From Calditrichales bacterium (lineage in GTDB: Bacteria; Calditrichota; Calditrichia; Calditrichales; J004): DNA of 64,000 nt. The stretch covers positions 352,001-416,000 of the forward strand of contig OZ254086.1 of NCBI GenBank assembly GCA_965267575.1, read 5' to 3'. Position numbers and translations under genes: made by a program. The number at the start of each line of letters is the position of its first letter. Positions within the stretch are counted from its first letter, which is position 1. Shown here one piece after another: positions 2,967 through 48,530 of the stretch. The notes under the pieces are model-generated. The model searched no databases, was not told where the DNA came from, and saw nothing but the letters and a program-made list of their open reading frames with translations.

Positions 2967-3007
2967 AGTCTTTCCCTCACATATATGACTTATGTAGATG
3001 TTCATGA

Positions 3008-10965: not shown

Positions 10966-11116
10966 AACAAAAACCTCCAAATAGGTAAAACGTGAGAGTT
11001 AAACAGTTAGACGACGAAAGTGCGAGAGTTTCTGCGCCACCTCCTTTCTAAGTTTCGCTATGTGTAAGTTTTACAAAGATGAACAAATTAAAGGTACTTT
11101 CCCGGGCTCGGTTTCA

Positions 11117-32412: not shown

Positions 32413-32455
32413 CAGAAAATCTGTTTAATCCTAATAGTACTTCCGCAAAATAAGA

Positions 32456-32484
32456 AAGGGAAGTCCGGCGGGCGGGCTTCCCTT
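32456..32484 (-). terminator. Hairpin or terminator after porV
   Basis: AAGGGAAGTCCG / CGGGCTTCCCTT inverted repeat, T-rich tail on the minus strand. Confidence 0.6.
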
Positions 32485-32493
32485 AAACGGTTT

Positions 32494-33585
32494 TTAGAAT
32501 TTGATGGATAACGAAAAACGCATTGTATCGGCCAGCGGGCTCTCTTCGTTGTCAGAGATATAGCCGAAGTCAAAGCCAAAAATATCATAAACGAGACCGG
32601 CGCCAAAGGTCAGGAACTGGCGTCCGCCGTTGAAGGGCGGGTCGGCTTCATAAAAATAACCGGTACGCAGCGCGATCAGGTTGCCGTACCAGTATTCGGC
32701 GCCAAAGCTGTGTGTTACTTCTTTCCAGCGTCTTTCCGCGTCACCTTTAACCCAGCTACTCCAGAGAGCGGCGGTCACAAAGTTCTCGGCCTTTGTGCCT
32801 TCACGTCTGTAAAGCGGCTTTGTGGCGTCATAAATAAGTGTTATGCGATTGAATTCATCGTCCAGCACTTTATAGGCCAGACCTACACGCAGGTTGGTTG
32901 GCAGCGGGTCGGCCTGAGCATCATCGTTATAAGCGACAGCCGGTCCAAAGTTGGAAAGGTTCGCGCCAACGCGCAGTTTGTTCTGAAAAATATCATAGTC
33001 CGGTTGCCACAATACGCCCAAATCAAGGGCGAAAGCCGTTGCCTGTCCGTTGGTCTGTTCGGCGCCCACCTGGATGTTTTGCGGTGCCAGGTTACTCTGG
33101 ATGATTTTAAGATTGACACCAAGACCTAGGTTTTCCTGCATCTTTGTAGAGTATGATAAGGTTATGGCGTATTCCTTCGCTTCAAAGTCGCCAAGGATAT
33201 TGCCGTTTTCGTCGGTATTAGTAATTTTGCCAAGGTTGAGGTAGGTAAGACTTGCGCCAAGCATACCCACATCTTCTACATAATAACGGGCAGCCAGGTA
33301 ATCATAAAACAGATCGTCAAAATTAAACTGGGGCAGCCATTTGGCATGCATCAGTGAAATTTCACCGGGCTTGTCCGTTTCGGGATCTTCATACTGGAAT
33401 GCCAGGCCTGCCGGGTTCCAGTAAATTGCTGTCGCGTCTGTGGCCAAAGCAACGCCGCCTTCGCCCATGCCGCCGGCTTTTGCGCCAGGGGCAATTTGCA
33501 GAAACTGGACCGCTGCCGTGCTCTGTGCCAATAGATTGGCGGAAAATGCCAATACAACTGCCATCGCCAATGATAAACGCTTCAT
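32494..33585 (-). CDS. porV: PorV-like T9SS outer-membrane shuttle (paralog 2, most PorV-like)
   Basis: AVQFLQIAPGAKAGGMGE, AIYWNPAGLAF, KWLPQF..DLFY, QADPLPTNLRVG, EYWY...ALRTGYFYE, GRQFLTFGAG, SPLADTMRFSL. Confidence 0.85.
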   Translation of the reverse strand: MKRLSLAMAVVLAFSANLLAQSTAAVQFLQIAPGAKAGGMGEGGVALATDATAIYWNPAGLAFQYEDPETDKPGEISLMHAKWLPQFNFDDLFYDYLAARYYVEDVGMLGASLTYLNLGKITNTDENGNILGDFEAKEYAITLSYSTKMQENLGLGVNLKIIQSNLAPQNIQVGAEQTNGQATAFALDLGVLWQPDYDIFQNKLRVGANLSNFGPAVAYNDDAQADPLPTNLRVGLAYKVLDDEFNRITLIYDATKPLYRREGTKAENFVTAALWSSWVKGDAERRWKEVTHSFGAEYWYGNLIALRTGYFYEADPPFNGGRQFLTFGAGLVYDIFGFDFGYISDNEESPLADTMRFSLSIKF

Positions 33586-33600
33586 TTTCTAACCTCCTTA

Positions 33601-33650
33601 AAAATAAAAAACCGGTTAAATGGAAAGGCACCTTTCACACTTAACCGGTT
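33601..33650 (-). terminator. Terminator-like hairpin in the porV 5' leader
   Basis: Minus strand AACCGGTTAAGTG-t-GAAAG-gtgc-CTTTC-CATTTAACCGGTT then TTTTATTTT, directly before the SD AAGGAGG. Confidence 0.65.
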
Positions 33651-33785
33651 AATTCTCGGGCAGACATATTAAGCCGTTTGCTAAAGGTAGCGCTTTCCGC
33701 TATCGATTTTCAAAAATTCAACAGTAAAAACAATTCCTTTAACAAATGACTTATATGCTATGCTCCCAGTTTTTTGCAGGCCTTG

Positions 33786-33814
33786 AATATATAGATGCCT
33801 ATTTTGTATGTCAA
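33786..33814 (-). promoter_or_regulatory. Sigma70 promoter upstream of porV
   Basis: Minus strand TTGACA (33809-33814), 17-nt spacer, TATATT (33786-33791). Confidence 0.72.
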
Positions 33815-33852
33815 GTCCTAAAAACGACGTCCCGCCTTTATAGTTCCGCTCT

Positions 33853-34248
33853 TCAAACGCCGCGTAAATGTCTTAATAATGCGCGTGGCGGACGTATCGC
33901 TTTATTCTCGGTATTCATAAATGTATGAAGTGAAAATCCTTCGCAGATTTTTTCATCCTTTTCATTCAAAACCACATACTCAAAACGAAATTTCGCACCG
34001 GACCCGGTCAGCTTCACTTCGATGGTCAGCAGATCATCGAACTGCGCGTAACGTATAAAACGCGCAAATACTTCCAGCACGGGCATCAGGTAGCCGTCTT
34101 TCTCTAGCCTGGCGTAAGAAAAGCCCTGCGCCTTCAGCAAATCTATGCGTGCATGTTCAAACCAGACAATGTAAGCCGAGTGATGAGCAAACTGCATCTG
34201 ATCCGTTTCGGCATAGCGAACACGAATCTGGCAGCGGTGAGTGATCAT
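33853..34248 (-). CDS. Acyl-CoA thioesterase (YbgC/4HBT family)
   Basis: RVRYAETDQM..AHHSAY..WFE.AR hot-dog signature. Confidence 0.93.
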   Translation of the reverse strand: MITHRCQIRVRYAETDQMQFAHHSAYIVWFEHARIDLLKAQGFSYARLEKDGYLMPVLEVFARFIRYAQFDDLLTIEVKLTGSGAKFRFEYVVLNEKDEKICEGFSLHTFMNTENKAIRPPRALLRHLRGV

Positions 34249-34253
34249 GCCGT

Positions 34254-35216
34254 CTATTCTTCCCAGGCGCCCATGACACTGAATTTTTTGTGGCGCTGTT
34301 CTATCAGCTTGTCCGGTGAAAGCGGCATAAGCTGCTTTAGTTGCTTTACAATCGCTTCTTTGACGTGTTTGGCGGACATCTCGTAGTCAACATGTGCCCC
34401 GCCCTGCGGTTCCTTGATCACCTCGTCGACGATCTTAAGTTTTTGCAGATCCGGCGCTGTTACCTTCATGGCCTCTGCGGCCTGCGGTGCTTTGGCGGCA
34501 TCGCGCCATAAAATCGCGGCACAACCTTCCGGACTGATTACCGAATACCATGAATTTTCCATCATCAGGATACGGTCGCCAACCCCGATACCAAGCGCGC
34601 CACCGGAAGCCCCTTCACCAATGATTACGCAAATGATTGGTACCGGAAGCCGGGCCATTTCCAGCAGGTTACGGGCAATAGCTTCCGCCTGACCGCGCTC
34701 TTCCGCACCAAGGCCCGGATAAGCGCCCGGCGTATCGATTAGCGTAAGTACCGGCTTGTTAAATTTCGCGGCCAGCTTCATAACACGCAGCGCTTTACGG
34801 TAACCCTCGGGATTCGACATCCCGAAATTGCGCATTAAATTGCTTTTAGTGTCGCGACCTTTTTGCTGGCCCACAACCACCAGAGAATATTTATCAATGC
34901 GTGCCAAGCCTGTAATTACGGCGTTGTCATTGGCAAAACAACGATCGCCATACAATTCTTCAAAATAATCCGTTATACGGTGGATATAGTCCAACGTGTA
35001 GGGGCGCTGGGGATGACGCGCCAGTTGCACGCGCTGCCATCGGGTAAGATTGGCATAGATCTGCTTGCGCAGCTCAGCCGCTTTGCGCTCCAGCCTTTTA
35101 ATGTCGTCATCCATGTTGATGCCGGTTTTGGCCGTGTAATCACGCATCTCGCTGATCTTTTCTTCCAGCTCAACAACCGGTTTCTCAAATTCCAGTACAA
35201 ATCGGGTTTGTGCCAT
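34254..35216 (-). CDS. accA: Acetyl-CoA carboxylase carboxyltransferase alpha subunit
   Basis: [58 protein letters not shown]. Confidence 0.98.
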
Positions 35217-35225
35217 CGGATATCC

Positions 35226-35951
35226 TTACAGTTTTCCTGTCATTCCCATGAAACGAAGTTTCCAGATCATGAATACCGCCTCCCACATAATTTTTTTGGA
35301 AAGCTTGGAAACTCCATATACGCGGTCTATAAAAATAATAGGTATTTCCCGGATACGAAAACCTTTTTTCCAGGCGCGGTAACTCATCTCGATCTGGAAG
35401 GCGTAGCCGTTTGAACCAACCTGGCTGAAATCCAGCGCTTCCAGGACTTCGCGACGGAAGCATTTAAAGCCGCCCGTGGCATCCTGCACGGGCATACCGG
35501 TTATAACCCGCGTGTACACATTCGCAAAATAGCTGAGCAACAACCGCCGTAAAGGCCAGTTTACCACGTTTACGCCTTTAATGTAGCGCGATCCCAGTAC
35601 AAGGTCATAGTTCTCAATAGCCTCAAGAAACTTGGGAATTTCCTTGGGATCATGGGAAAAGTCAGCATCCATTTCAAAGATAAATTCATAGCCGCGGGCC
35701 AGCGCGTATTTAAATCCTGCCAAATAGGCACTGCCCAGCCCCATTTTGCCGGGACGCTCCAATAAATGAATATGCGGATTGTTTTCCTGCAAACCTTTAA
35801 CGATCTGCCCGGTCCCGTCAGGTGAATTATCATCCACAAACAGGATATGAACGTCCTTCTGGTAGCGGGCAATCTCCTGCACCAGCCGCGGAACGTTTTC
35901 TTTTTCGTTATAAGTGGGGACTATTATCAGGGCTTTGGATGCGTCAACCAT
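35226..35951 (-). CDS. Polyprenol-monophosphomannose synthase (Dpm1/Ppm1-like GT2)
   Basis: IVPTYNE.EN, VDDNSPDGTG, GKMGLGSAY, EMDADFSHDP, GSRY, DATGGFKCFR, GYAFQIE, DRVYGVSK. Confidence 0.92.
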   Translation of the reverse strand: MVDASKALIIVPTYNEKENVPRLVQEIARYQKDVHILFVDDNSPDGTGQIVKGLQENNPHIHLLERPGKMGLGSAYLAGFKYALARGYEFIFEMDADFSHDPKEIPKFLEAIENYDLVLGSRYIKGVNVVNWPLRRLLLSYFANVYTRVITGMPVQDATGGFKCFRREVLEALDFSQVGSNGYAFQIEMSYRAWKKGFRIREIPIIFIDRVYGVSKLSKKIMWEAVFMIWKLRFMGMTGKL

Positions 35952-36849
35952 TCTGGGCTTCACTCAATTTCTTTTTTAATCGTGTTAATCCGGATCCGAT
36001 ATCGCCCGGCTCCCAGTTGATCCTGTTAACCAGCTTATCTATCACAAATGTGGAGATCATCGGGCGCGGGGCTTTTTGCTGAAGACCGGAAGACATAATG
36101 CGTTCAATCAGGTTTTTATCCAGGTTAAATACTTCTGCTACCTTTCGCGCAAAATCGTAGCGGCTGGCCGTCTCCGACCCGCTGATGTGGAACAGCCCGT
36201 ACTCCCTGTTTTGGATGAGCTTGAGCAGGCTGACGCTCACGTCCTCGGCGTATGTGGGATTACCTATCTGATCGGCCACAACGCGAATCGGTTTTTTCTG
36301 GCTGAGCCGGCTTATCACCCAGGTGGCAAAATTAAGCCGCACATCGCGTGCAAAGCCATATAAAACCTGCGTGCGCGCTATAATGTGCTCCAGGGCTGAT
36401 GAACTGACAATGTTTTCAGCAGCCATTTTACTGCGCGCGTAGTAGCCCAGCGGGTTAACATCATCCTGCTCGCGATAGTCCCCTTTTGTGCCATCAAAGA
36501 CATAGTCCGTTGAAATTTGCACAAACAACGGCTTAAAATCCTGCACCACGTCTACAATATTCTCAACCCCGCGGACGTTGGTGTTCCAGCATAACTCTTT
36601 TTCTTCTTCACTGCCGTCCACATTCGTATAGGCGGCGGCGTTGATAATAATTTCCGGTTGCACATCCGTAAGCAGATCGCTCATCTGCTGGCGGCTTATC
36701 ATATCCACCTGGCGGTATTCCACCTCTTTCTGCAAAAATTTTGGCCCGGCCGAACGTGACGAGGCGATCACCGAAAAATGCGGTGCAAAGTGTTCCACCA
36801 GGTTTTGCCCCAGCAGACCATTGGCACCAAATATCAGCAGCTTCTTCAT
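35944..36849 (-). CDS. rmlD: dTDP-4-dehydrorhamnose reductase
   Basis: GANGLLG, NAAAYTNVD, ISTDYVFDG, PLGYYARSK, DQIGNPT, APRP. Confidence 0.88.
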   Translation of the reverse strand: MKKLLIFGANGLLGQNLVEHFAPHFSVIASSRSAGPKFLQKEVEYRQVDMISRQQMSDLLTDVQPEIIINAAAYTNVDGSEEEKELCWNTNVRGVENIVDVVQDFKPLFVQISTDYVFDGTKGDYREQDDVNPLGYYARSKMAAENIVSSSALEHIIARTQVLYGFARDVRLNFATWVISRLSQKKPIRVVADQIGNPTYAEDVSVSLLKLIQNREYGLFHISGSETASRYDFARKVAEVFNLDKNLIERIMSSGLQQKAPRPMISTFVIDKLVNRINWEPGDIGSGLTRLKKKLSEAQNG

Positions 36850-36940
36850 GTGAGATTAAGTCCATCCATGTTGAAAAATTTTAAATTTAAAGAAATAGCC
36901 AAAACAGCGCAATGAAGTCCAAAAACGCTTTTGCCCTGAC

Positions 36941-37981
36941 CTAATTTTCTTCAGCCTCGTCAGCAAAGCGAAAAGTTGATGCAATCACTTCAAGCTGGTC
37001 GAGAAAAGGCTTTTTCTTTTTGTCGGGCGCCATTACCGCTATATCGAGCATATAAAAAGCGTTTTCATCCGGCTTGTGGATGGCGTACATACGAAAAGGT
37101 CCGCCCACAAACAGAGAATCGTTTTTCCAGGTGCCCACCATTTTGCGTGTTCTTTCACCGTGAAAATCAACGATCGATACATAGCTTTCTTCGGTTACTA
37201 CGGAATCACCGGCATAATATTTATAGGTCATAGCATTCCTGATGGCTATCAGGCTGTCCTTGGTCAGCATACTGCTGTCTGCCTCCACACGCCAGATAGA
37301 AAGCCAGCGGTCCGGGTTTATGCGCCTTAGCCAGACATACTTGTTCTCCGGGTTTTGTGTAGCCAGAAAATAGTCGTGTTGTACGCGCACGGCGTAGCCG
37401 TATTCGGAGGCCAGGTACTCTTCCATATCTTCCTGTTCGGCCCTTTCGTACATGCTTTTCTTCAGCCGGGCAAAATACTTTTCTTCAAATGTATTGTAGA
37501 TTTCATCCTTGACCCGTTGAAAATTGCCGTTGAACTCTGCGGCTGTCGGCGCCATCATGAACATGGCAATCTGCCCGCGGGCAAAAAGGTCATCCTGGAA
37601 AAAATAGAAAGCGCGGTTTTGATTTACCTGGTCGATAAACTGCTGCGGCAGGCTTTGCAACAGGTAGTCATTCACTTCAGTGCCGGGCTGCGTAGTGCCT
37701 ACAAACAAAATATTCATGCGCTCATTAAGCCCGTTAAGATCGGATAAGGGATGCCATTGCAGCTCAAAGCGCCTTTCCGCGCGCGGGGTGTAGATAAAAT
37801 TGTTAAAGGTAAGTTCCACATCTTTGCCCACCTGCTCCCACAAAACAGAGTCGGCAAACACATAAATGCCATCAGGCACACCGAGTGCCTCAGGTTTATA
37901 ATCGCACGCGAAGCCGGTTAACAGTATGAGCAGCAGGCCGGTTAGGCCGGTTTTAGAAATCTTCTTTAATGGCTTTAACAT
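36941..37981 (-). CDS. DUF4837-like lipoprotein
   Basis: Lipobox TGFAC, G.W....GGPF and APDKKK..LDQLE.IA.TF C-terminal pattern. Confidence 0.75.
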   Translation of the reverse strand: MLKPLKKISKTGLTGLLLILLTGFACDYKPEALGVPDGIYVFADSVLWEQVGKDVELTFNNFIYTPRAERRFELQWHPLSDLNGLNERMNILFVGTTQPGTEVNDYLLQSLPQQFIDQVNQNRAFYFFQDDLFARGQIAMFMMAPTAAEFNGNFQRVKDEIYNTFEEKYFARLKKSMYERAEQEDMEEYLASEYGYAVRVQHDYFLATQNPENKYVWLRRINPDRWLSIWRVEADSSMLTKDSLIAIRNAMTYKYYAGDSVVTEESYVSIVDFHGERTRKMVGTWKNDSLFVGGPFRMYAIHKPDENAFYMLDIAVMAPDKKKKPFLDQLEVIASTFRFADEAEEN

Positions 37982-38936
37982 CTTTAAGTCCTTTGCTTTT
38001 ACGTTGTACTGCAAAAAGCACCGCTCCCCACAAAGAAATGACCATGGGGACAATCACATTCAATAAAGCCAGGCTGATTGAGGCCGCGGAAGAGACGCCC
38101 ATTTTACCCAGCAAAAACACAAAGCCACCGTCACGCAAACCCAGCCCGTTGATGGATGGCAGCATGGTTAAAAGAAACGTAACCGGCACCACAAGAAAAA
38201 GATAGAGCAGCTCCACTTCGATGCGCAAGGCCAGGCACAGCGCGTAATTCATCAGCACGATGGCGGCCTGCGAGAGCACGGAAAGAAAAAAGACCCAAAC
38301 GAAAACGCGGCGCCGGTCGCGCAGAAAATGCATCGCTTCAATCAGTTTGTTGATTTTTTCGCCCAGGTTGAGCAGGGTAAATTTGTCAAAAATGCGCAGC
38401 AGCCACAAAACCGGACGTTCCCGCGTTATCATCACAAAAAAAGTAATAATGGCAATTAACAAAAAGACAGAGACGAGGAGAATGCGCTGATCCTGGAAAT
38501 AATGCGAGACGTAATAAAGTGATGTGATTGCCAGAAACAGGGTGGCCGCAATACCCATGATGCGTTCGATGATCACGGAAGCGAAAGCAGCGGTTCGATT
38601 GTCCGAATCGGCGGCGGCGCTATATATGCGGACAATATCACCGCCGATACTGGTGGGCAGAAAGTTGTTAAAAAACAATCCGACGAGGTAAAAGCCATAA
38701 AGCCGGGAGGATGAAATCCCCACTTCATATTGATGTAGCAGACTTCGCCAGCGCACGGTCATCAGACCAATACTGACCATGGTTATCGCTATCGCCAGCA
38801 ACAGGAAGGGCAGGCCCTCGCTGCGGATGACATTACCAAGCACATTTACAATCTGCTGCGGATCCGACGTGATAACCAGGTAGCCAAGCAACCCGACCGA
38901 TATGAGCACCTTGGCCAGATTTTTTAACCAACGCAT
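37953..38936 (-). CDS. LPG_synthase_TM (AglD2/MprF-flippase-like) membrane protein
   Basis: Multi-TM; RW..LL, GLFFNNFLPTSIGGD..R, ERIMG, LPSINGLGLRD. Confidence 0.88.
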   Translation of the reverse strand: MRWLKNLAKVLISVGLLGYLVITSDPQQIVNVLGNVIRSEGLPFLLLAIAITMVSIGLMTVRWRSLLHQYEVGISSSRLYGFYLVGLFFNNFLPTSIGGDIVRIYSAAADSDNRTAAFASVIIERIMGIAATLFLAITSLYYVSHYFQDQRILLVSVFLLIAIITFFVMITRERPVLWLLRIFDKFTLLNLGEKINKLIEAMHFLRDRRRVFVWVFFLSVLSQAAIVLMNYALCLALRIEVELLYLFLVVPVTFLLTMLPSINGLGLRDGGFVFLLGKMGVSSAASISLALLNVIVPMVISLWGAVLFAVQRKSKGLKDVKAIKEDF

Positions 38937-38940
38937 CTGC

Positions 38941-41592
38941 TTATTCTTCTTGGTTCATCCGCCTTTTCAACATCTGCAGCATTCTGTTTGCTTCGCTGTC
39001 CGCAGGATTCATCTTAAGCCATCTTTCAAGTGCGCTGATTGCCTTTTCGGTCTCGCCGCTCATTTCGTAGGCGGTGATCATTCCGCCCAAAAGATCGGGA
39101 TTGTCGGGCATGTTTCCGGCGGCCTTTTCAAATAGCTGGGCGGCCCGGTCAAATTCATTTATACCCAACAAATACCGCCCAATGGACGCAATATGCCGCT
39201 GGTTGGAGGGATTGTCGATTACGGTCCCGATGTGGCTGGTATCAACGGCGATCTTAAAAGCGTTGTAATAGTTGCGTAAAACGCTGTTGGTCCATGGAAT
39301 GGTTTCCGCGGGCATTTGGGCATCCAGGCTATCCAGAACCGTCGCCAGTTTGTCTTTATTGCGCTCGAAGCGGGCATAATATTCTGCTAGTTGTATAAAG
39401 CCTGTGCGGTAATTCTGCAATAAACCGACGATACTGGGATTAAAATAAACATCCGGATTGTCAAGGTTGCGATATTGATAGCGCTCCAGGAGATTCAGTT
39501 GCAGCATATCGGGGCCGACATCCCAGTTTTTAAACGGCACCAGTCTCAGAACCAGCCCTTCCATGCGCATGTAATTGGAGAGCTCACCCACCAGGTTGGA
39601 TTGCGGAACGGTTGTGGCAAAATAAACCGGCTTCGTCCAGCGGTTGGCGGTAAGAATATTAAGAATCATGTAATCCTGCGTGCGCAGCAGATTGTATTGC
39701 TGGAAGCGGATGGTAGGCGGCACCTTAAAGGTAATTTCCGTCGGGAGATTCATGATATTGACGCTGCTGAAATTTTCCTTGTACTGGCGCAGCGCGCTGT
39801 CCGCGACGGACTGCGGCACTTTCAGCGAAACCTCCTGCTCCTGCCAGGGCACGGGACGGATTTGTCCCAGCATGGCGTCGCTGACGCGCATAGGCACTTT
39901 GGGCTCCATATCACGCAACTGTTCGATATACCAGTCGGTGTTGAGCAGGCTAAGGTTGACGATGCGGATATCCGTACGGATGCCTTCTACTTCCTGCAGG
40001 TACCAGAGCGGGAAGGTATCGTTATCACCATTCGTGAACAGAATGGCGTTGGGCTCACAGGATTGCAGCATATTGTAGGAATAATCCCAGGCTACGAAAT
40101 TGCCGCTGCGATCGTGAATTTCATAATTCTTGGCCATCATGTTGACCGGGCTGATAACAAGCAGCACAACGAGCACTCCTGCCATGACCGGGGCTGCCAG
40201 TGCTTTTGTCTTGTCTTTCATAAAATCGCGAATCAGGTCAATGGTGCCGGCAAAACCTAAACCGATCCAGATGGAGAAGGCGAAGAAGCTTCCCACATAA
40301 CTGTAGTCCCTTTCACGCGGCTGTGGATCGGGTTGGTTCAGATACAAAATAATTGCGAGGCCCGTGGCAAAGAATAAGGCCAGCACCGAGAGCGCGTGCT
40401 TGGGATCGCGCCTGAAATGAAAGATCATACCAATCAGACCCAGCAAAAAAGGAATCCCGTAAAAATTAAAATTATGCCAGCTGCCGGTGTCCTCGTTAAA
40501 GCCGACAAACTGCCACATGAAGTAGCGGATGTACATGTGGTTAACCTGATAGCTCCAGAAGAAGTCCCAGGTGGAGCTGTACTGATTGCCGTTTGGCGAG
40601 CTTTGCCATACACCGCGACGATCCATGAAGTCGTGTTCGCCGTACTGCTCGCGGTTGATATACTTCATGAAATTTTCAACGTTCTCGGGATTGTTTTCGT
40701 CGATGTTGGGATCCAGGCCGGAACGGATATAGATGGTGCCGTAGCTGGAATAGCCGATCATGATCAGTGTGATGGAGAGAAAAATAAAGCTAAGCAGGTG
40801 GCGGTGGTTGGCAACGGCCCACCAGGCAACGCCGGCAAAAAGGGCAAAAACAAGAAACAACGCGAAAAAGCTGATTTCTGCGACATGCGGCAAATGCTTT
40901 ACAATACCGGGATATATGGTAAACATTATCACAACTGTGATGGCCACCATGATGCCAAAGGTGCGCGGTGTAAAGGTATAGCGCTTGTAATAATAGATCA
41001 TCGCTACGAACGGCAGCGCCAGTACGTTGAGCAGGTGCACGGCAATGGCCAGACCGATCAGGTAGGAGATCATCAGCAGGTATTTTTCGTTGTTTGTTTC
41101 GTTGGATTTTTCAGCCCATTTGAGAGACAGCCAAACCAGCAAAGCGGTAAACAGCATAGAGGGTGCATACACTTCCGCTTCCGAAGAGTTAAACCAGAAG
41201 CTGCGGGTAAAAGCGTAAGTAAGCGAACCAAGAATGCCGGAAAACACGGCCAGCATCCAGTCTTCTTTTGTTTCCAGCTTGCCCTTCCATTCACGCACCA
41301 GATGTACAATGACCAGGTAAAGCAGCATGATCGTGATAGAGCTGGAAAGAACGGAAATCATGTTGACACGGAAAGCTATATCTTCATGGAAAGGCAACAT
41401 CGAGAAAATACGGCCCACAAGCAGGTATAGCGGCGCTCCCGGAGGATGGGGTACTGCCATTTTGAAGCTGGTGGCAATAAACTCGCCGCAGTCCCAGAAC
41501 GAAACCGTGGGAGCTACCGTCATTGTGTAGATAATCGTTGTAAATACAAAAATGGCCGCGGCCGTCACGCGGTTAATCTGATTCCAATTCAT
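38941..41592 (-). CDS. DUF2723 / TMEM260-like GT-C glycosyltransferase with C-terminal TPR (candidate protein O-mannosyltransferase)
   Basis: PTVSFWDCGEF, VPHPPGAP, EAEVY, YINREQYG, QPRERDY, ILFTNGDNDTFPLWYLQEVEG; many TM helices. Confidence 0.88.
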   Translation of the reverse strand: MNWNQINRVTAAAIFVFTTIIYTMTVAPTVSFWDCGEFIATSFKMAVPHPPGAPLYLLVGRIFSMLPFHEDIAFRVNMISVLSSSITIMLLYLVIVHLVREWKGKLETKEDWMLAVFSGILGSLTYAFTRSFWFNSSEAEVYAPSMLFTALLVWLSLKWAEKSNETNNEKYLLMISYLIGLAIAVHLLNVLALPFVAMIYYYKRYTFTPRTFGIMVAITVVIMFTIYPGIVKHLPHVAEISFFALFLVFALFAGVAWWAVANHRHLLSFIFLSITLIMIGYSSYGTIYIRSGLDPNIDENNPENVENFMKYINREQYGEHDFMDRRGVWQSSPNGNQYSSTWDFFWSYQVNHMYIRYFMWQFVGFNEDTGSWHNFNFYGIPFLLGLIGMIFHFRRDPKHALSVLALFFATGLAIILYLNQPDPQPRERDYSYVGSFFAFSIWIGLGFAGTIDLIRDFMKDKTKALAAPVMAGVLVVLLVISPVNMMAKNYEIHDRSGNFVAWDYSYNMLQSCEPNAILFTNGDNDTFPLWYLQEVEGIRTDIRIVNLSLLNTDWYIEQLRDMEPKVPMRVSDAMLGQIRPVPWQEQEVSLKVPQSVADSALRQYKENFSSVNIMNLPTEITFKVPPTIRFQQYNLLRTQDYMILNILTANRWTKPVYFATTVPQSNLVGELSNYMRMEGLVLRLVPFKNWDVGPDMLQLNLLERYQYRNLDNPDVYFNPSIVGLLQNYRTGFIQLAEYYARFERNKDKLATVLDSLDAQMPAETIPWTNSVLRNYYNAFKIAVDTSHIGTVIDNPSNQRHIASIGRYLLGINEFDRAAQLFEKAAGNMPDNPDLLGGMITAYEMSGETEKAISALERWLKMNPADSEANRMLQMLKRRMNQEE

Positions 41593-41720
41593 GAACGGGT
41601 ATTCCTTTTAGAATAATACATCAGGTTCGTTGGTAAAAGAAGATAAAGCTACAGCATCCGCTAAATCATAGCAACCTTTTTAGGTTTACTTACCGTCAAA
41701 ACACCATAAACAGCGCCGAC

Positions 41721-42788
41721 TCAAAAAGGTTGCTTTTTTTCAGGGTAACGCCGGAAGCGGCGCACACAACTGTATGGCATCTGGCGCCGCGCAAAATGAT
41801 CGATGACGATGCTGCCGCGGTACATGTTTTTTATGATCGCGCGGTCGGAAACGGTTCGCATTTTTTGCACGGCACGGCGCTTTTTCATTATAAACAGCGG
41901 GTGGGAAAAGACAAACCACAAGGCGTCCAGTACAGCCCTCGCGCGTTTGCCGCTCCAGACGATCGTGTCGGCCAGAACGGTGGCCATTTCGAAAAGGACA
42001 CGCAGCGGAAAAAACACAAAAAGCAGCGGGAATGAATAATTCTTTAGCATCATAATCAGGTTGTTGCGGTGATTCAGGTACATTTTGCGCTGGTTGTCGC
42101 TGCGCAGCGTGTAGCCGGAATAGTGATATATCCAGGTGTCGTAGGTTACCACGTTGCGGTACCCGGCAATCTGGGCCCGCCAGTTCAGATCGATCTCTTC
42201 CTGGTGTGCAAAAAAGTCTTCATCCAGCAAGCCGATTTTGTCGGTTACGCTTTTGCGCAAAAGCAGCGCGCAGCCGGAAGTCCAGAAGACCGTTTTTTCA
42301 AGGTTGTCATATTGCCGCTTGTCTTTTTCCACGGTATCAAAAATGCGCCCGCGGGCAAAGGGATAACCAAACAGGTCCATCTCGCCGCCGGCGCCGCCGG
42401 AGTAGTCAAAATAGCTGTGGTCCTGAATGGAAAGGATTTTGGGCTGCACGCAGGCAATACGCTCGTCGGCAGCTATAACCCGGTGCATCACCTCCATAAA
42501 AGCCGGCGGCATCACGGTGTCGTTGTTCAACAGCAGCACAAAAGGCGTTTTGGCGATGCGGATGCCCTGGTTACAGGCGCCGGCATAGCCCAGGTTGTCA
42601 GCGTTTTCGATCAGCTCCACATCGGGGAAATTTTCCAGTACCATGCGCTGGCTGCCATCCGTTGAGCCGTTGTCGATGACGATGGTGTGGAAACGCGGCG
42701 TCTTGTTCTTCAGCAAGGATTGCAGGCAATCCCGCAAAATATCAAGCCCGTTGTAATGCGGTATAATGACGGTAATTTCTGTTTTCAT
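41721..42788 (-). CDS. Family 2 glycosyltransferase
   Basis: IIPHYNG, IDNGSTDGS, NLGYAGACNQG, LLNNDT, DEDFFAHQEEIDL.WR. Confidence 0.93.
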   Translation of the reverse strand: MKTEITVIIPHYNGLDILRDCLQSLLKNKTPRFHTIVIDNGSTDGSQRMVLENFPDVELIENADNLGYAGACNQGIRIAKTPFVLLLNNDTVMPPAFMEVMHRVIAADERIACVQPKILSIQDHSYFDYSGGAGGEMDLFGYPFARGRIFDTVEKDKRQYDNLEKTVFWTSGCALLLRKSVTDKIGLLDEDFFAHQEEIDLNWRAQIAGYRNVVTYDTWIYHYSGYTLRSDNQRKMYLNHRNNLIMMLKNYSFPLLFVFFPLRVLFEMATVLADTIVWSGKRARAVLDALWFVFSHPLFIMKKRRAVQKMRTVSDRAIIKNMYRGSIVIDHFARRQMPYSCVRRFRRYPEKKQPF

Positions 42789-42802
42789 TTTTTGCGTTCA
42801 TC

Positions 42803-42931
42803 TATCCAGGTTTCATGTGTTAAAATCTGTATAGTCCCGTCCGGTACGCGGGATTCGACCTCTCCCGTCGGCAGATCCCGGTGTTGGCTTGTTCGCCAAA
42901 CCGGGATAACACGTATGCAAAAGCCAGGACA
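42803..42931. ncRNA. Candidate multi-stem structured RNA or REP-like element, family unknown
   Basis: Five nested inverted repeats read by eye (see finding); G-U pairs favour the + strand. Confidence 0.4.
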
Positions 42932-42941
42932 CAGGAAAGTC

Positions 42942-42980
42942 ATTCGTAATTCCTTAATTCGTAATTTGTAATTGATTAAT
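42942..42980. repeat. Degenerate heptamer tandem repeat (TTCGTAA-like, about 5 units)
   Basis: attcgta attcctta attcgta atttgta attgatta, directly after the recG stop. Confidence 0.6.
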
Positions 42981-45079
42981 CAGCTAATGTTGAACATGGC
43001 CAGTCGGTCACGGTATTCACGGCTGATCGTTTTGCGTATGCCGGCATTTTCAGCGGCACGCAGCTGCGGGTCATGATCGACCAGCTCAAAGGCATCACGG
43101 CGGGCCTGCTCCAGAATGTGCCGGTCACGCACGGGATGCGCCAGACGGAAAAGCGGCACACCACTTTGTCGCGTTCCAAACAGGTCGCCCCAGCCGCGCA
43201 GCTCCAGGTCTTTTTCGGAGATCACAAAGCCGTCGTTGGTCTCGGTCATCGTGCGGATGCGCGCCCGGGCCTGCTCGCCCACGTTGGCCGGCGTTTTCAG
43301 TATACAGTACGATTGCTTCGCTCCACGGCCCACACGACCCCGCAATTGGTGCAGCTGCGAGAGCCCGAAACGCTCGGCGTGCTCGATCAGCATGATGGTA
43401 GCATTGGCCACATCCACGCCCACTTCCACCACCGTTGTGGTTATAAGCATGTGGATATCGCCATTGGCGAAGGCGCGCATAACGGCCTCTTTGTCTTCGC
43501 TTTTCATGCGCCCGTGCAGCAATCCCAACTTGTACTTTTTAAAAGGCCCGGCCGATAAACTGTTAAAGGCATCGGTTGCCGCCTTAAGATCGCTCTTTTC
43601 ACTCTCTTCCACCAGCGGAAAAACCATGTAGACCTGCTCGCCGGCATCAAGGCGTTCGCGCAAAAAAGCATATATACGCTGCGCCTGATCGTCCTTGCGC
43701 CAGACCGTTCGTACAGGCTTGCGGTTTTTGGGCAGCTCATCAATCACCGAAACCTCAAGTGAGCCGTAGGCGGTAAGGGCCAGCGTTCGCGGGATGGGCG
43801 TGGCCGTCATCACCAGCACGTCCGGTTGTTCGCCTTTACCCATCAGCACGCCGCGCTGCAATACGCCAAAACGGTGCTGCTCATCGATGATCACCAGGCC
43901 GAGCCGCGCAAACTGAACCGTTTCTTCCAGCAGGGCGTGTGTGCCCACCACCAGGTTTACCTGCTCGTCACGGATCTGCGCTTGCAGATAGGCGCGTTCC
44001 TTTTTGCTTTTGCCGCCGGTTACCAGTGCTATTTTTACTCCGAGCTGCCCCAGGAAACGCGATGTATTGATAAAGTGCTGCTCGGCCAGAATTTCCGTCG
44101 GCGCCATCAGCGCCACCTGGTAGCCATTGTCAATGCAGACCAATGCCGCCATCATCGCCACCAGTGTTTTACCCGCGCCCACATCACCCTGCAGCAGACG
44201 GTTCATCGGCGAACTTTCTTTCATATCCCGGCGGATTTCGCGCATAACGTTTTTTTGCGACTGCGTCATTTCAAAAGGCAATTTTTTGTAGAGCTCGTTT
44301 AACCGCGGACTCTGTTTATCAAAGGAAATGCCCAGCGGTTTATTGCGCACATGATAACGCTGAAGGGCAAACAGCAGCTGCAGGTAAAAAAATTCTTCGT
44401 ATATAAAACGGTAGCGCGCCCGCTCCAGCATATCGACGCTTTCGGGCAGGTGCATCTGGCGATAAGCCTCATGAAGGCCCAAAAAGTGGCGCTCCCGGAT
44501 AAGCGAATCCGGAAGTACCTCTTTGCATACCTGCGGTACTGTTTTAAATAAATCACGGAAAATGCGCCGGAAGACATAGGAGTTTACCCCGGCCTTTTTC
44601 AACGCATCGCTGCCGGGGTAAAGCGGCAGCACCTTGCCGGTGTTGACCATTCCGTCGAGGTCACCGTGATCAAGTATGTCAAAATCGGGGTGCGTCATCT
44701 GGTAGCCGCGGTAGAAGGTGACTTTGCCGGAAAGCGCCACCCAATCGCCCACTTTGAAAATATTTTTAAAAATGTGGATCGCATTGAACCAGACAGCCTC
44801 GAGCATGCCTTTGCCATCGCTGATGACGATATAAAACAGGGCTTTACGCAGACGCTTGATGCCGGCGGCTTCCACCTTGCCGACGACGGTCACTTCTTCA
44901 TCGGTGGCCTGCAGGGCGTCCAATCCGATAATTGTGCTGCGGTCCAGGTAGCGGCGCGGGCAATAGTTTAACAGCGCGTCAAAGCTGTCAATGCCTGCTT
45001 TTTTCAGGGCTTCGGCGCGCTTGGGGCCAATGCCTTTGAGATAGGTGATCTCAGGTTGCGGCTGCTCGTTTGCGGACAT
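42980..45079 (-). CDS. recG: ATP-dependent DNA helicase RecG
   Basis: MNRLLQGDVGAGKT, APTEILAEQH, IDEQHRFG, MTATPIPRTL, QLHQLRGRVGRG, DLELRG.GD..GTRQSG. Confidence 0.98.
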   Translation of the reverse strand: MSANEQPQPEITYLKGIGPKRAEALKKAGIDSFDALLNYCPRRYLDRSTIIGLDALQATDEEVTVVGKVEAAGIKRLRKALFYIVISDGKGMLEAVWFNAIHIFKNIFKVGDWVALSGKVTFYRGYQMTHPDFDILDHGDLDGMVNTGKVLPLYPGSDALKKAGVNSYVFRRIFRDLFKTVPQVCKEVLPDSLIRERHFLGLHEAYRQMHLPESVDMLERARYRFIYEEFFYLQLLFALQRYHVRNKPLGISFDKQSPRLNELYKKLPFEMTQSQKNVMREIRRDMKESSPMNRLLQGDVGAGKTLVAMMAALVCIDNGYQVALMAPTEILAEQHFINTSRFLGQLGVKIALVTGGKSKKERAYLQAQIRDEQVNLVVGTHALLEETVQFARLGLVIIDEQHRFGVLQRGVLMGKGEQPDVLVMTATPIPRTLALTAYGSLEVSVIDELPKNRKPVRTVWRKDDQAQRIYAFLRERLDAGEQVYMVFPLVEESEKSDLKAATDAFNSLSAGPFKKYKLGLLHGRMKSEDKEAVMRAFANGDIHMLITTTVVEVGVDVANATIMLIEHAERFGLSQLHQLRGRVGRGAKQSYCILKTPANVGEQARARIRTMTETNDGFVISEKDLELRGWGDLFGTRQSGVPLFRLAHPVRDRHILEQARRDAFELVDHDPQLRAAENAGIRKTISREYRDRLAMFNIS

Positions 45080-45082
45080 GCC

Positions 45083-45793
45083 TCAGGAGGGATTGGTTTT
45101 GGTTTTCTGGCCGGCAATGCGACCGTCATCCAGTTCGATGATGCGATGCGCCTGCTCGGTCATATGCTCGTTGTGCGTTACGATCAACAGCGTATGTTCA
45201 AGCTCTTTGTTTAACTGTAACAGCAGATTGTATAGCGCCTCGCCGTTGCGTTTATCGAGGTTGCCGGTAGGCTCATCGGCCATAACAATTTTGGGTTTGT
45301 TGACGACGGCACGGGCTACGGCTACGCGTTGCTGCTCGCCGCCGCTCATTTCGCGCGGTTTGTGGTCCAGCCGGTGCGACAATCCGACAAGATCCAGTAT
45401 ATGCCGGGCGTATTCCTGTTTTTCCCGTTCCTTTCCGTTGGGCCAGATCATCGTCGGGATCAGCACGTTTTCCAGCGCCGTAAACTCCGGCAGCAAATGA
45501 TGAAACTGGAAAACAAAGCCCACGGTCAGATTGCGCACACGGGCTTTTTCCACCTGGTTAAGCTGCGCCACATCCTGTCCGCCGATGGAAATCGCGCCGC
45601 TGTCGGCCTCATCCAGCAGGCCCAGCACATGCAGCAGAGTACTTTTACCCACGCCGGACGGCCCCATGATAACCGCCACATCGCCCTGCGGAATGGTCAG
45701 ATCGATGCCTTTGAGCACTTCCACCGCCTGCGGTCCGTTGCGATAGCTTTTGCGCAGATTCTCGGCCTTAATAGCCCATTGATTGTTATTCAT
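45083..45793 (-). CDS. lolD: Lipoprotein-releasing ABC transporter ATPase
   Basis: GPSGVGKST, GFVFQFHHLLPEFTALENV, SGGEQQR, ADEPTGNLD. Confidence 0.92.
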   Translation of the reverse strand: MNNNQWAIKAENLRKSYRNGPQAVEVLKGIDLTIPQGDVAVIMGPSGVGKSTLLHVLGLLDEADSGAISIGGQDVAQLNQVEKARVRNLTVGFVFQFHHLLPEFTALENVLIPTMIWPNGKEREKQEYARHILDLVGLSHRLDHKPREMSGGEQQRVAVARAVVNKPKIVMADEPTGNLDKRNGEALYNLLLQLNKELEHTLLIVTHNEHMTEQAHRIIELDDGRIAGQKTKTNPS

Positions 45794-47021
45794 ATCGGAT
45801 GGCCTCCACCGGAATCAGGCGCGAAGCTTTGTACGCAGGATAAACCGAAGCAACCAGGCTGAGCGCCATGGAGATGCTGCCAATGGAAATAAAGTCCAGC
45901 AGCCGCAGCTTAACAGGCAGCGCATCGATCAGGTAAACATCCGAGGGCAGCGATATCAGGTGATACTCCAGTTGTAGCCAGGCCACGCCATAGCCGATGG
46001 CGCACCCAAGCACTGTGCCAATAATGCCCACCAAAAGGCCTTCGAACAGAAATATCTTCATAATACTCGCAGAGGTAGCGCCCATTGATTTCAGGATGCC
46101 GATTTCACGGGTCTTGTCCATCACCACCATCACCAGCGAGCTTATAATGTTAAAAGCGGCCACCATGATAATCAGGCTGAGAATTACAAATGCGCCCCAC
46201 TTCTCGATCTCCATCCAAGAGAAGAGTGAGCGGTGCATCTCAAACCAGGAGAGCGCCACATAGGGATAGCCCAGTTGCTCGGCGATGGCATTGCCTACTT
46301 CACCGGCCTTTTCATAATCATTCAGCTTGATCTCAATCCAGGTTACGCCGTCCATACCAAACAGCTTTTGCGCGTCTTCGATAGAGACATAGGCAAAAAC
46401 CTTGTCATACTCGTAATAGCCAAACTCCACCAGCCCGGCCACATAAAACTGCATGATGCGCGGCTGCGTGAAAAAACCGCCTTCCTTCGGCATGGACCAG
46501 ACCGAGACGATATCACCGATGCCCATGGCTAAAAGCCCATCAGCCAGGTAGCGCCCAAGTACGATGCCCGGCAACTTGCGCCCCTCGATCATCTTCTCCG
46601 AGAAGTCCAGCTCACCGGATACTATGTTAGCGGTAATTTCGGTTACCTCATCCGCCGTATTTTTGTCGATTGCTTTGATGCCTGCGGGACGCTGGTAGCT
46701 GGATGATTTGATCATCGCCTGCTCGTTAATGGCGGGCGAAGCGCCAACGACCTCTTTGTGAGAACGGATTATGTTCAAAACAGAATCGGGCTTTTCGATC
46801 GGTTTGTTGAAATACTTGCGGATACGCACATGGGCGTCAGCCCCGATCAGCCGCGAGCGCACTTCCTGTTCAAAGCCGTTCATCACCGAAAGCACCAGGA
46901 TCAGCGCCGTCACACCAATCATGATGCCCGCAATCGAAACATAGGTAATAATGGAGATAAAGCCGGTTTTACGCTTGGCTCCGAGATAACGGCGGGCTAT
47001 AAAATATTCAAAAGATGCCAT
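45786..47021 (-). CDS. lolE: Lipoprotein-releasing ABC transporter permease (LolC/E)
   Basis: IARRYL..KR..GFIS, VLSVMNGF, VAAFNIISSL.M.V.DK.REIGILKSMGA, PAYKAS...PVEAIRYE. Confidence 0.9.
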   Translation of the reverse strand: MASFEYFIARRYLGAKRKTGFISIITYVSIAGIMIGVTALILVLSVMNGFEQEVRSRLIGADAHVRIRKYFNKPIEKPDSVLNIIRSHKEVVGASPAINEQAMIKSSSYQRPAGIKAIDKNTADEVTEITANIVSGELDFSEKMIEGRKLPGIVLGRYLADGLLAMGIGDIVSVWSMPKEGGFFTQPRIMQFYVAGLVEFGYYEYDKVFAYVSIEDAQKLFGMDGVTWIEIKLNDYEKAGEVGNAIAEQLGYPYVALSWFEMHRSLFSWMEIEKWGAFVILSLIIMVAAFNIISSLVMVVMDKTREIGILKSMGATSASIMKIFLFEGLLVGIIGTVLGCAIGYGVAWLQLEYHLISLPSDVYLIDALPVKLRLLDFISIGSISMALSLVASVYPAYKASRLIPVEAIRYE

Positions 47022-48524: not shown

Positions 48525-48530
48525 AAACTC

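Follow-up and report, generated by a model that had tools for sequence, protein, structure and literature searches.

General O-glycosylation of exported proteins is a phylum-wide trait of the Bacteroidota, and the transferase which attaches its glycan to serine or threonine has been sought for more than 15 years, as far as the accessible text of two sources tells (10.64898/2026.07.27.740950; PMC12871550). In its accessible parts, a 2025 review describes the glycan core as mannose-rhamnose-glucuronic acid (Man-Rha-GlcA) with mannose at the reducing end, states that deletion of the outer-glycan locus leaves a hexose-deoxyhexose (Hex-dHex), and lists the core machinery, flippase, oligosaccharyltransferase (OTase) and ligase as undiscovered; the pathway is said to resemble eukaryotic O-mannosylation, whose homologues are deemed worth seeking (PMC12871550). 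A preprint of July 2026, in the portion accessible, likewise treats the OTase as still unidentified and reports that truncation of the inner core is not tolerated (10.64898/2026.07.27.740950). Here we consider a stretch of 64,000 nucleotides from a Calditrichales bacterium (contig OZ254086.1, positions 352,001 to 416,000; the whole stretch is hereafter the window), in which a run of six genes at 35226-42788 encodes a GT-C glycosyltransferase related to human TMEM260 alongside candidate enzymes for the synthesis and translocation of its donor.

TMEM260 is the protein O-mannosyltransferase which serves the IPT domains of cMET, RON and the plexins (PDB 9rql). According to the accessible text of its cryo-EM preprint, D52 and H67 belong to a sugar-recognition motif, R264 and Y267 to a donor loop, R355 in the tenth transmembrane helix (TMH10) contacts the mannose, and D441 is the catalytic base beside the acceptor threonine. 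Mutating D52, H67, R264, Y267 or D441 abolishes or strongly reduces activity, and the donor is polyprenol-phosphate-mannose. On bacteria, the paper that describes TMEM260 speaks only of 'distant homologs in bacteria'.

For the locus described here we computed family membership, the conservation of catalytic residues, gene order in relatives, phyletic spread and the excess of a glycosylation sequon in exported proteins. The starting point was an original prediction, made from the sequence letters alone, of a protein O-mannosylation pathway centred on a TMEM260-like enzyme. The reading we arrive at is that the run may encode a lipid-phosphate-mannose-dependent protein O-mannosyltransferase which starts general O-glycosylation, and we would give this full reading an even chance of being right. 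In order of transcription (GT2 of 355 amino acids (aa), GT-C, flippase-like protein, DUF4837 protein, RmlD, GT2 of 245 aa), the six genes are:

41721-42788, minus strand: GT2 glycosyltransferase, 355 aa (PF00535, E 4.8e-26)
38941-41592, minus strand: TMEM260-like GT-C (PF11028, DUF2723), 883 aa (E 4.6e-65)
37953-38936, minus strand: flippase-like, MprF-TM-type membrane protein, 327 aa (PF03706, E 5.1e-38; TIGR00374)
36941-37981, minus strand (open reading frame (ORF) open to 38053): DUF4837 lipoprotein, 346 aa from M25 (PF16125, E 2.5e-45)
35944-36849, minus strand: dTDP-4-dehydrorhamnose reductase of the RmlD family, 301 aa (TIGR01214; PF04321, E 7.7e-69)
35226-35963, minus strand: DPM1-like GT2, resembling dolichol-phosphate-mannose synthase (DPMS), 245 aa (best solved relative 5mlz, E 1.6e-33)

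All six had been named beforehand, and their coordinates, strand and every family assignment hold when set against Pfam and NCBIfam.

The 883-residue GT-C is, on sequence evidence, a well-supported member of the TMEM260 family. Its PF11028 match scores 219.2 bits relative to a cut-off of 24.2 and covers residues 34-206, while TPR_19 is matched at residues 813-873 (E 8.6e-10). The layout comprises an N-terminal multi-helix membrane module with a WDCGE loop, a periplasmic alpha/beta domain carrying the motif NGDNDT, and a C-terminal TPR domain; the acidic loop (SFWDCGEF, residues 31-38) and the TPR tail lie as originally described, and [FY]WDCGE recurs in all 32 ORFs examined. A profile built from 12 homologues matches human TMEM260 (9rql) over three stretches at E 3e-22 (HMMER). 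In the printed alignment, D34 is placed on D52 of the human enzyme, H49 on H67 (VPHPPG against VAHPPG), R314 and Y317 on R264 and Y267 (REQYG against REEYG, in a weak segment of 4.9 bits), and D523, within NGDNDT, on the catalytic base D441. These five residues are invariant in 38 of 38 sequences, an alignment made up of Calditrichota, KSB1, Marinimicrobia, Ignavibacteria, Chlorobi and Bacteroidota loci. As for the mannose-contacting R355, the aligned stretch begins at chain residue 365, and the invariant R426 and R428 stand unaligned 13-15 residues upstream in the query.

Structural comparison was made with an AlphaFold2 model for which the 38-sequence alignment served as input (predicted local distance difference test score (pLDDT) 88.6, predicted template modelling score (pTM) 0.88). 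The model consists of a helical membrane module, an alpha/beta domain at approximately residues 500-700 and helical repeats at 719-882. When searched against the PDB with Foldseek, it returned only GT-C enzymes at the top, namely PglB (E 3e-6), ALG12, AglB/STT3, Pmt4, ArnT and DPY19, and its matches also include Pmt1-Pmt2 and arabinosyltransferases. A comparison with TMEM260 by profile and by Foldseek had been proposed in the original prediction. The profile match and the GT-C fold bear it out, while 9rql itself is not among the Foldseek matches from the PDB, and the link to TMEM260 is one of sequence profile. We regard it as very probable that the protein is a GT-C of the TMEM260 family with a lipid-phosphate sugar as its donor, and we lean, with considerably more reserve, towards a protein as its acceptor.

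In the protein search, the top match is 96% identical and the next ones at most 65%, those with names being metagenome-assembled genomes (MAGs) of Calditrichaeota or Calditrichaceae. The best loci in our genome collection (56-60% identity) likewise belong to Calditrichaceae and Calditrichota. The Bacteroidota host which had been assumed at the outset is thus replaced by a member of the Calditrichota, to which the nearest named loci point.

Within its own genome the GT-C is a single-copy gene. Its family, PF11028, was found in 55 of the 56 genomes by which the Calditrichota are represented in the collection and in 300 of 301 Bacteroidota genomes sampled evenly, every match in both phyla exceeding the Pfam cut-off, and in one of 14 control genomes, that of B. 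thetaiotaomicron. Orthologs of the DPMS-like GT2 were present in 61 of 61 genomes of a Bacteroidota sample, at 47-65% identity and E-values of 1e-72 to 1e-110 (paralogs score 1e-27 or weaker), and clear orthologs of the 355-aa GT2 form a class found in 46 of the 61. The GT-C and the putative donor synthase belong to the core gene set of both phyla, which is what a general glycosylation system would need.

A second PF11028 paralog, shorter at 640-700 aa and scoring lower, is present in some genomes (e.g. G036:C93, G038:C2 and G056:C50). In others, the long form is duplicated in tandem (L111, L120, and G315:C1 at 5184799 and 5188043).

The 245-aa GT2 is the candidate donor synthase. It aligns with the dolichol-phosphate-mannose synthase of Pyrococcus (5mlz) over residues 8-236, with the DAD motif in register, and much less closely with ArnC (E 3.1e-14) or the GtrB-like sll0501 (E 9.3e-07), so that by E-value it lies some 19 orders of magnitude nearer to DPMS than to ArnC. 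Hydropathy gives it no membrane segment. It is a reasonable inference from sequence that the enzyme is a polyprenol-phosphate-mannose synthase, the sugar being that of its nearest solved relative. In seven Bacteroidota-sample genomes, the DPMS-like ortholog is directly followed by an ORF of 578-744 aa with an N-terminal GT2 domain (contigs G056:C14, G062:C10, G080:C45, G081:C1, G085:C28, G109:C11 and G113:C60), which may be a further conserved partner of the synthase.

The other GT2, of 355 aa, belongs to the generic nucleotide-sugar type and has a single hydrophobic segment in its C-terminal part (residues 255-273). Its best relatives in the PDB, generic GT2 enzymes such as chondroitin synthase, include no polyprenyl-phosphate-sugar synthase, and it matches the rhamnosyltransferase model TIGR01556 weakly (54 bits for a cut-off of 200). 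A role for this protein as the lipid-phosphate-sugar synthase was considered and set aside, as neither DPMS, ArnC nor GtrB occurs among its best matches.

The flippase-like protein exceeds the cut-offs of both PF03706 (131.7 bits, cut-off 33.4) and TIGR00374 (79.5 bits, cut-off 43.2), and hydropathy suggests approximately seven hydrophobic segments. We propose, from its family, that it translocates a lipid-phosphate sugar. Downstream of it, the DUF4837 protein has a probable true start at M25, followed by the lipobox-like LTGFAC; judged by eye, an N-terminal hydrophobic stretch followed by cysteine is found in all 25 listed homologues, 24 of which were used to build its alignment. Its AlphaFold2 model (pLDDT 92.0) has a C-terminal half resembling PsbP and Mog1. 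With Foldseek, the model matched PsbP, CyanoP and the M. tuberculosis proteins Apa, LpqN and MTC28 at E-values of 5e-6 to 1e-4 and query-normalised TM-scores (TMq) of about 0.3, and a search of the ESM Atlas returned DUF4837 clusters only. This lipoprotein may act as a periplasmic accessory or scaffold. The RmlD of the run scores 231.7 bits with TIGR01214, just above the cut-off of 224.05, and an rmlB is encoded elsewhere in the genome (472.9 bits). The sole RmlC-like gene of the genome is a 164-aa ORF (G000:C1:4211397-4211729), as compared with two genes of the RmlD family in the window.

To describe gene order in relatives, the window proteins were compared by tblastn (coverage of at least 50%, E of at most 1e-8) with 80 loci, 77 of which carry the GT-C. 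As many of these loci are short contigs, the following counts are lower bounds:

All loci (80): 355-aa GT2 40, flippase-like 23, DUF4837 25, rmlD 24, DPMS-like GT2 21, accA 11, recG 34
Named Calditrichota (11): 355-aa GT2 8, flippase-like 11, DUF4837 11, rmlD 10, DPMS-like GT2 10, accA 6, recG 5
Named KSB1 (7): 355-aa GT2 1, flippase-like 4, DUF4837 4, rmlD 4, DPMS-like GT2 5, accA 1, recG 5
Named Marinimicrobia/Fidelibacterota (16): 355-aa GT2 13, flippase-like 0, DUF4837 0, rmlD 2, DPMS-like GT2 0, accA 0, recG 10

The most widely kept neighbour of the GT-C is the 355-aa GT2. The two also adjoin in three Bacteroidota-sample genomes (G057, G077 and G081), the same GT2 adjoins a PF03706 gene in a fourth (G073), and in a fifth (G111) 3 kb separate the DPMS-like gene from a PF03706 gene. 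In 34 of the 80 loci, among Calditrichota, KSB1 and Marinimicrobia, the gene immediately upstream of the GT-C, or of the GT2 beside it, is recG; its proximity is probably inherited gene order.

A further line of evidence concerns the acceptor. Occurrences of D[ST][AILVMT] were compared with those in per-protein shuffles, using an ORF caller and a signal-peptide rule, both of them crude, over the whole genome. The ratios of observed to expected were:

Own genome, exported proteins (n=953): 1.49, z 19.7
Own genome, lipoproteins (n=227): 1.89, z 16.5
Own genome, cytoplasmic proteins (n=1283): 0.98, z -0.6
Bacteroidota loci, exported, positive control (n=59): 1.35, z 3.3
Calditrichota loci, exported (n=28): 2.30, z 6.5
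Ignavibacteria/Chlorobi loci, exported (n=34): 1.54, z 3.5
KSB1 loci, exported, small sample (n=13): 1.42, z 1.5
Marinimicrobia loci, exported, small sample (n=42): 1.23, z 1.7
E. coli K-12, 150 kb, exported (n=32): 0.91, z -0.5

Control motifs (E-[ST]-x and the reversed motif) gave 0.94-1.19. In the own genome, 500 exported proteins exceed expectation and 444 fall below it, the corresponding figures for cytoplasmic proteins being 446 and 798. The genome of this bacterium bears the Bacteroidota-type sequon signature, which the accessible text of the review reports mainly for the Bacteroidota and, as a lead, for the Fibrobacterota (PMC12871550). That the window would itself hold a sequon-rich substrate had been anticipated. 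The putative lipoprotein at 16867-18567 contains 10 D-S/T-hydrophobic sequons relative to 1.98 expected, in keeping with the enrichment across the exported proteins of the genome, and is a candidate acceptor.

This lipoprotein is one of four further features of the window which relate to the run:

14068-15153, minus strand: ManC, mannose-1-phosphate guanylyltransferase (PF00483, NTP_transferase, E 1.6e-43; PF22640, ManC_GMP_beta-helix, E 4.1e-16)
16867-18567, minus strand: sequon-rich putative lipoprotein with Big_5 and DUF2141 (Pfam; LFSC lipobox-like signal)
23804-24679, minus strand: second RmlD_sub_bind protein, 291 aa (PF04321, E 1.6e-47)
42980-45079, minus strand: recG, beyond the end of the run marked by the 355-aa GT2

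The manC gene is outside the cluster, 20 kb off, at the distance given in the original prediction. Gaps along the run and its continuation range from -20 to +191 nt, the rmlD and 245-aa GT2 genes overlapping by 20 nt. Past the 355-aa GT2, the run extends to recG, an ABC/FtsX pair and an aminoacyl-tRNA synthetase; at its other side, accA and then a thioesterase gene follow with no break. Co-directionality, which had been offered as support for a pathway, is real for the six genes and carries little weight, as all 43 ORFs in or overlapping the 64-kb window, as found by the crude ORF caller, are on the minus strand. A scan of 32000-49000 for promoters and terminators gave 16 and 16 sites, relative to 17.1 and 21.7 in shuffles, and marked no operon boundaries.

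The donor sugar, lipid carrier, flipping, protein acceptor, sequon specificity and rhamnose step are what we infer from these results, and they may be arranged as follows. ManC, encoded elsewhere in the window, would supply GDP-mannose, from which the soluble DPMS-like GT2 would make polyprenyl-phosphate-mannose (presumably on undecaprenyl) at the inner face of the membrane. The MprF-type flippase-like protein would carry this lipid to the periplasmic face, where the TMEM260-like GT-C would move the mannose to serine or threonine of exported proteins held by its alpha/beta and TPR domains. Transfer would most likely be aimed at the D-S/T-hydrophobic sequon, and the GT-C would be the initiating transferase of a Bacteroidota-type general O-glycosylation that reaches the Calditrichota. 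The deoxyhexose of a Man-Rha core may be the contribution of the 355-aa GT2 and RmlD, made on the lipid ahead of its flipping or by another route, and the DUF4837 lipoprotein would be an accessory.

A wider proposal is that D-S/T O-glycosylation started by a TMEM260-like GT-C is ancestral to the Fibrobacterota-Chlorobi-Bacteroidota (FCB) group, reaching at least the Calditrichota and the Ignavibacteria/Chlorobi, and that it runs on lipid-monophosphate-mannose, as O-mannosylation in eukaryotes does, rather than on an oligosaccharide linked through diphosphate and transferred en bloc. We advance this tentatively, at somewhat less than even confidence. Put more boldly, Man-Rha would be built on the monophosphate lipid by the neighbouring GT2 and RmlD, and the GT-C would transfer this core disaccharide in one step; the YfhO-like protein would be a later 'ligase', and animal TMEM260 a descendant or relative of the bacterial enzyme.

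Several observations weigh against an O-mannosyltransferase which starts general glycosylation. With respect to the donor, no NCBIfam equivalog is reached by the 245-aa GT2: PpgS scores 63 bits relative to a cut-off of 370, AglJ, ArnC and Halo DPhHxTase fall far under theirs, and no bacterial Ppm1 model is among its best NCBIfam matches. The polyprenol-phosphate-mannose synthase of the original prediction keeps DPMS as its closest relative and lacks the backing of a curated model. For the translocator, no fusion of the flippase-like domain to a GT2 was seen among the four longer relatives found, which are GT4/GT1, sulfatase and PAS fusions and make for a weak test. The PF03706 family, detected in 57 of 61 Bacteroidota-sample genomes when searched as a family (a search with the single protein found 6 of 61), also occurs in 10 of 14 controls and is missing from four of the 61 genomes, all of which bear the GT-C; the DUF4837 family is present in just 28 of the 61. 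Since the GT-C and the DPMS-like synthase are both near-universal, their co-occurrence does not discriminate. Rhamnose extension, which had been suggested as possible, has rmlD and rmlB in its favour. The branch is otherwise weak: the rmlA-like gene of the genome scores 180.6 bits against a cut-off of 360.65, and rmlC is represented by 32.8 bits with TIGR01221 (cut-off 155.75) and a partial PF00908 match of 39.5 bits. The rhamnose step is uncertain because there is no canonical rmlC and the rmlA-like gene lies below its cut-off. Moreover, a GT2 in the cytoplasm has no direct way of extending an O-mannose in the periplasm.

Gene order and the sequon excess carry qualifications of the same kind. 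The association of DUF2723 with Dpm1-like and flippase genes, put forward in the original prediction as a check, is kept in Calditrichota and KSB1; beside the GT-C of Bacteroidota, none of the partners was found in 20 of 20 loci of 19.5 kb, and the full cluster is for this reason limited to Calditrichota and KSB1. In the named loci of Ignavibacteria type (10) and Chlorobi (2), none of the seven genes counted above was found (0 of 12). The synteny is in part plain gene order, since recG and accA, which are unrelated in function, share the neighbourhood. As regards sequons, the signal-peptide rule errs, having called one ABC ATPase exported, and the excess is partly concentrated, the ratios falling to 1.28 for exported and 0.81 for cytoplasmic proteins when the top 5% by count are dropped. 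Finally, human TMEM260 serves one narrow client class, the IPT domains, as far as its accessible description goes.

Other explanations have to be considered in light of these observations. A YfhO-like GT-C, or another enzyme (e.g. one of Wzy_C/PglL-like type), may link the glycan to D-S/T while the TMEM260-like protein takes another periplasmic step; the latter could then O-mannosylate a narrow class of proteins, as its human counterpart does, or add a branch sugar. We consider this unlikely, though it counts among the points against the preferred reading that the July 2026 preprint, in its accessible text, predicts YfhO as the OTase from an HHpred match to yeast protein O-mannosyltransferase (PMT), wide conservation, predicted essentiality and 12 transmembrane segments (10.64898/2026.07.27.740950). 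Of 151 Bacteroidota-sample genomes, 143 gave a YfhO-like match with E of at most 1e-3, 111 of them over the cut-off; among Calditrichota, such matches occur in 51 of 56 genomes, 34 over the cut-off. (A search at E of at most 1e-10 gave 53 of 301, a threshold too strict for comparison, and was redone at 1e-3 on the 151 genomes.) The window's own genome encodes an 833-aa YfhO/PTPS-related-like membrane protein (L139:9290-11791) in a second glycosylation cluster, as well as three PMT_2 and three Wzy_C proteins, other transferases which face the periplasm. The published model, as far as accessible, requires two periplasmic transfers, by OTase and ligase, so that both GT-C enzymes could take part (PMC12871550). 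Against this, the same preprint's accessible text gives YfhO as absent from Porphyromonas gingivalis (10.64898/2026.07.27.740950), a species listed among those with a characterised O-glycoproteome (PMC12871550). The TMEM260-like GT-C is nearer to universal than YfhO (300 of 301 and 55 of 56, all above the cut-off), while nearly all YfhO-like matches in both phyla span just the final 80-90 or so positions of the YfhO model. A homologue whose protein O-mannosyltransferase activity is proven, and whose catalytic residues are conserved, exists for the TMEM260-like enzyme alone; this enzyme keeps the acceptor-side base and the TPR domain of that homologue, and it alone adjoins a DPMS-like synthase. 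Mannose, the first sugar of the known glycans, likewise favours it over YfhO.

The set of synthase, flippase and GT-C also fits the logic of three-component systems, in which a GT2 polyprenyl-phosphate-sugar synthase is paired with a GT-C, as in GtrABC, ArnC/ArnT and CsbB/YfhO. The locus might in that case decorate a non-protein acceptor such as lipid A or the lipopolysaccharide (LPS) core, O-antigen, capsule or another envelope glycan, in agreement with the presence of ArnT and arabinosyltransferases among the Foldseek matches and of rmlD and GT2 neighbours, which are typical of polysaccharide loci. This seems improbable to us given that D441, which in TMEM260 acts on the acceptor threonine, is kept as D523 in an invariant NGDNDT, that there is a TPR domain, the part of TMEM260 to which the acceptor peptide binds according to the accessible part of its description, and that the flippase candidate is of PF03706 rather than GtrA type. 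The GT-C is moreover a near-universal single-copy core gene across two phyla, which variable glycan-decoration systems are not, and the sequon excess implies that some sequon-directed modification of proteins is under selection in this genome. That the six are independent housekeeping neighbours caught in a long, tight, co-directional stretch and share no pathway is a view which we hold to be very improbable. It draws on the uniform strand of the 43 ORFs, on the inclusion of recG, accA, the ABC transporter and the thioesterase in the same conserved run, on the scattering of the genes in Bacteroidota and on promoter and terminator counts at or under shuffle expectation, which set no operon boundaries. 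Yet at least four of the six consecutive genes come from glycosylation-related families which fit one route, their order is kept across Calditrichota and KSB1, and gaps inside the run are small or negative. Separate pairings also recur elsewhere, that of the GT-C with the 355-aa GT2 in 13 of 16 Marinimicrobia loci and the three Bacteroidota-sample genomes named above, that of the same GT2 with PF03706 in G073, and that of the DPMS-like gene with PF03706 in G111.

The second cluster (L139, G000:C1:1622000-1640000) lies approximately 1.24 Mb from the window. It contains a TPR protein of 563 aa, a DUF4292/LolA-like lipoprotein, GT2 proteins of 310 and 346 aa, the 833-aa protein, two GT4 proteins and a glucuronyl C5-epimerase-like protein. 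The 833-aa protein has a weak match to the YfhO C-terminus, and in Pfam a weak PTPS_related match only. It is possible that this cluster corresponds to the YfhO system which has been put forward as the OTase of Bacteroidota. The window also holds features of a type IX secretion system (T9SS), namely two PorV-like proteins, two proteins with a Por_Secre_tail sorting domain and a 1664-aa Peptidase_C25 of the gingipain family (1941-3005, 9193-10980, 29521-32412, 32494-33585 and 54478-59472), which are compatible with FCB-group membership of the Calditrichota host.

The original prediction is partly supported by these analyses, and it bears on an open question beyond what was known when it was made. 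A full-text literature search, which took in neither preprint supplements nor subscription journals, found no paper linking DUF2723 or TMEM260 to O-glycosylation in the Bacteroidota. The locus offers a concrete candidate for the missing initiating transferase, together with a likely donor synthase and translocator, and the gene order which links these candidates is visible only outside the Bacteroidota. It also sets up a direct contest with the YfhO prediction. If the preferred reading is true, a PMT-like, lipid-monophosphate route to general protein glycosylation would exist in Gram-negative bacteria, the system would extend to other FCB phyla, and the disease gene TMEM260 would gain a bacterial model.

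Relative to human TMEM260, the enzyme described here shares PF11028, the succession of GT-C module, alpha/beta domain and TPR, and five aligned key residues. The polyprenol-phosphate-mannose used there finds a parallel in the DPMS-like synthase encoded in the same cluster here, three genes away from the GT-C. The similarity extends over parts of the proteins only, the three HMMER stretches, and their lengths differ, 883 aa as opposed to the 729-residue chain of 9rql (707 aa in UniProt numbering). The bacterial enzyme would work in the periplasm instead of the endoplasmic reticulum, presumably with an undecaprenyl rather than a dolichyl carrier, and its gene belongs to the near-universal core of entire phyla. 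If the preferred reading is right, the enzyme would serve hundreds of sequon-bearing clients, in contrast to the one domain class of its human relative. With the Bacteroidota system, the locus has in common the sequon over-represented in exported proteins, and the GT-C and DPMS-like GT2 occur in essentially all Bacteroidota sampled. The two differ in that the published model, in its accessible form, has an OTase transfer an undecaprenyl-linked oligosaccharide en bloc, and not a single sugar in the manner of a PMT (PMC12871550), and in that the host here is a member of the Calditrichota, a phylum for which the papers examined report no O-glycoproteome.

The eukaryotic and actinobacterial PMT pathway, composed of Dpm1/Ppm1 and a PMT GT-C, follows the same proposed course from GDP-mannose to polyprenol-phosphate-mannose, flipping, and transfer by a GT-C to serine or threonine, and Pmt4 and Pmt1-Pmt2 are among the Foldseek matches. 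However, the enzyme here belongs to PF11028 and not to PMT or PMT_2, has TPR and alpha/beta domains in place of MIR, and is distinct from the three PMT_2 proteins of the genome, which are encoded by separate genes. GtrABC, ArnC/ArnT and CsbB/GtcA/YfhO are three-component glycan-modifying systems, and like them the locus encodes a GT2 lipid-phosphate-sugar synthase, a translocator and a GT-C together. It departs from them in a translocator of MprF-TM type, in a synthase without the C-terminal transmembrane helices of GtrB and ArnC, and in a GT-C with a catalytic base of the protein-acceptor type and a TPR domain. Finally, among solved structures the 245-aa GT2 most resembles the Pyrococcus furiosus DPMS 5mlz, the match covering the entire catalytic domain with DAD aligned. 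The window protein ends after that domain and has no membrane segment, while the chain of 5mlz runs to 374 residues, the additional part of which we take to be transmembrane helices.

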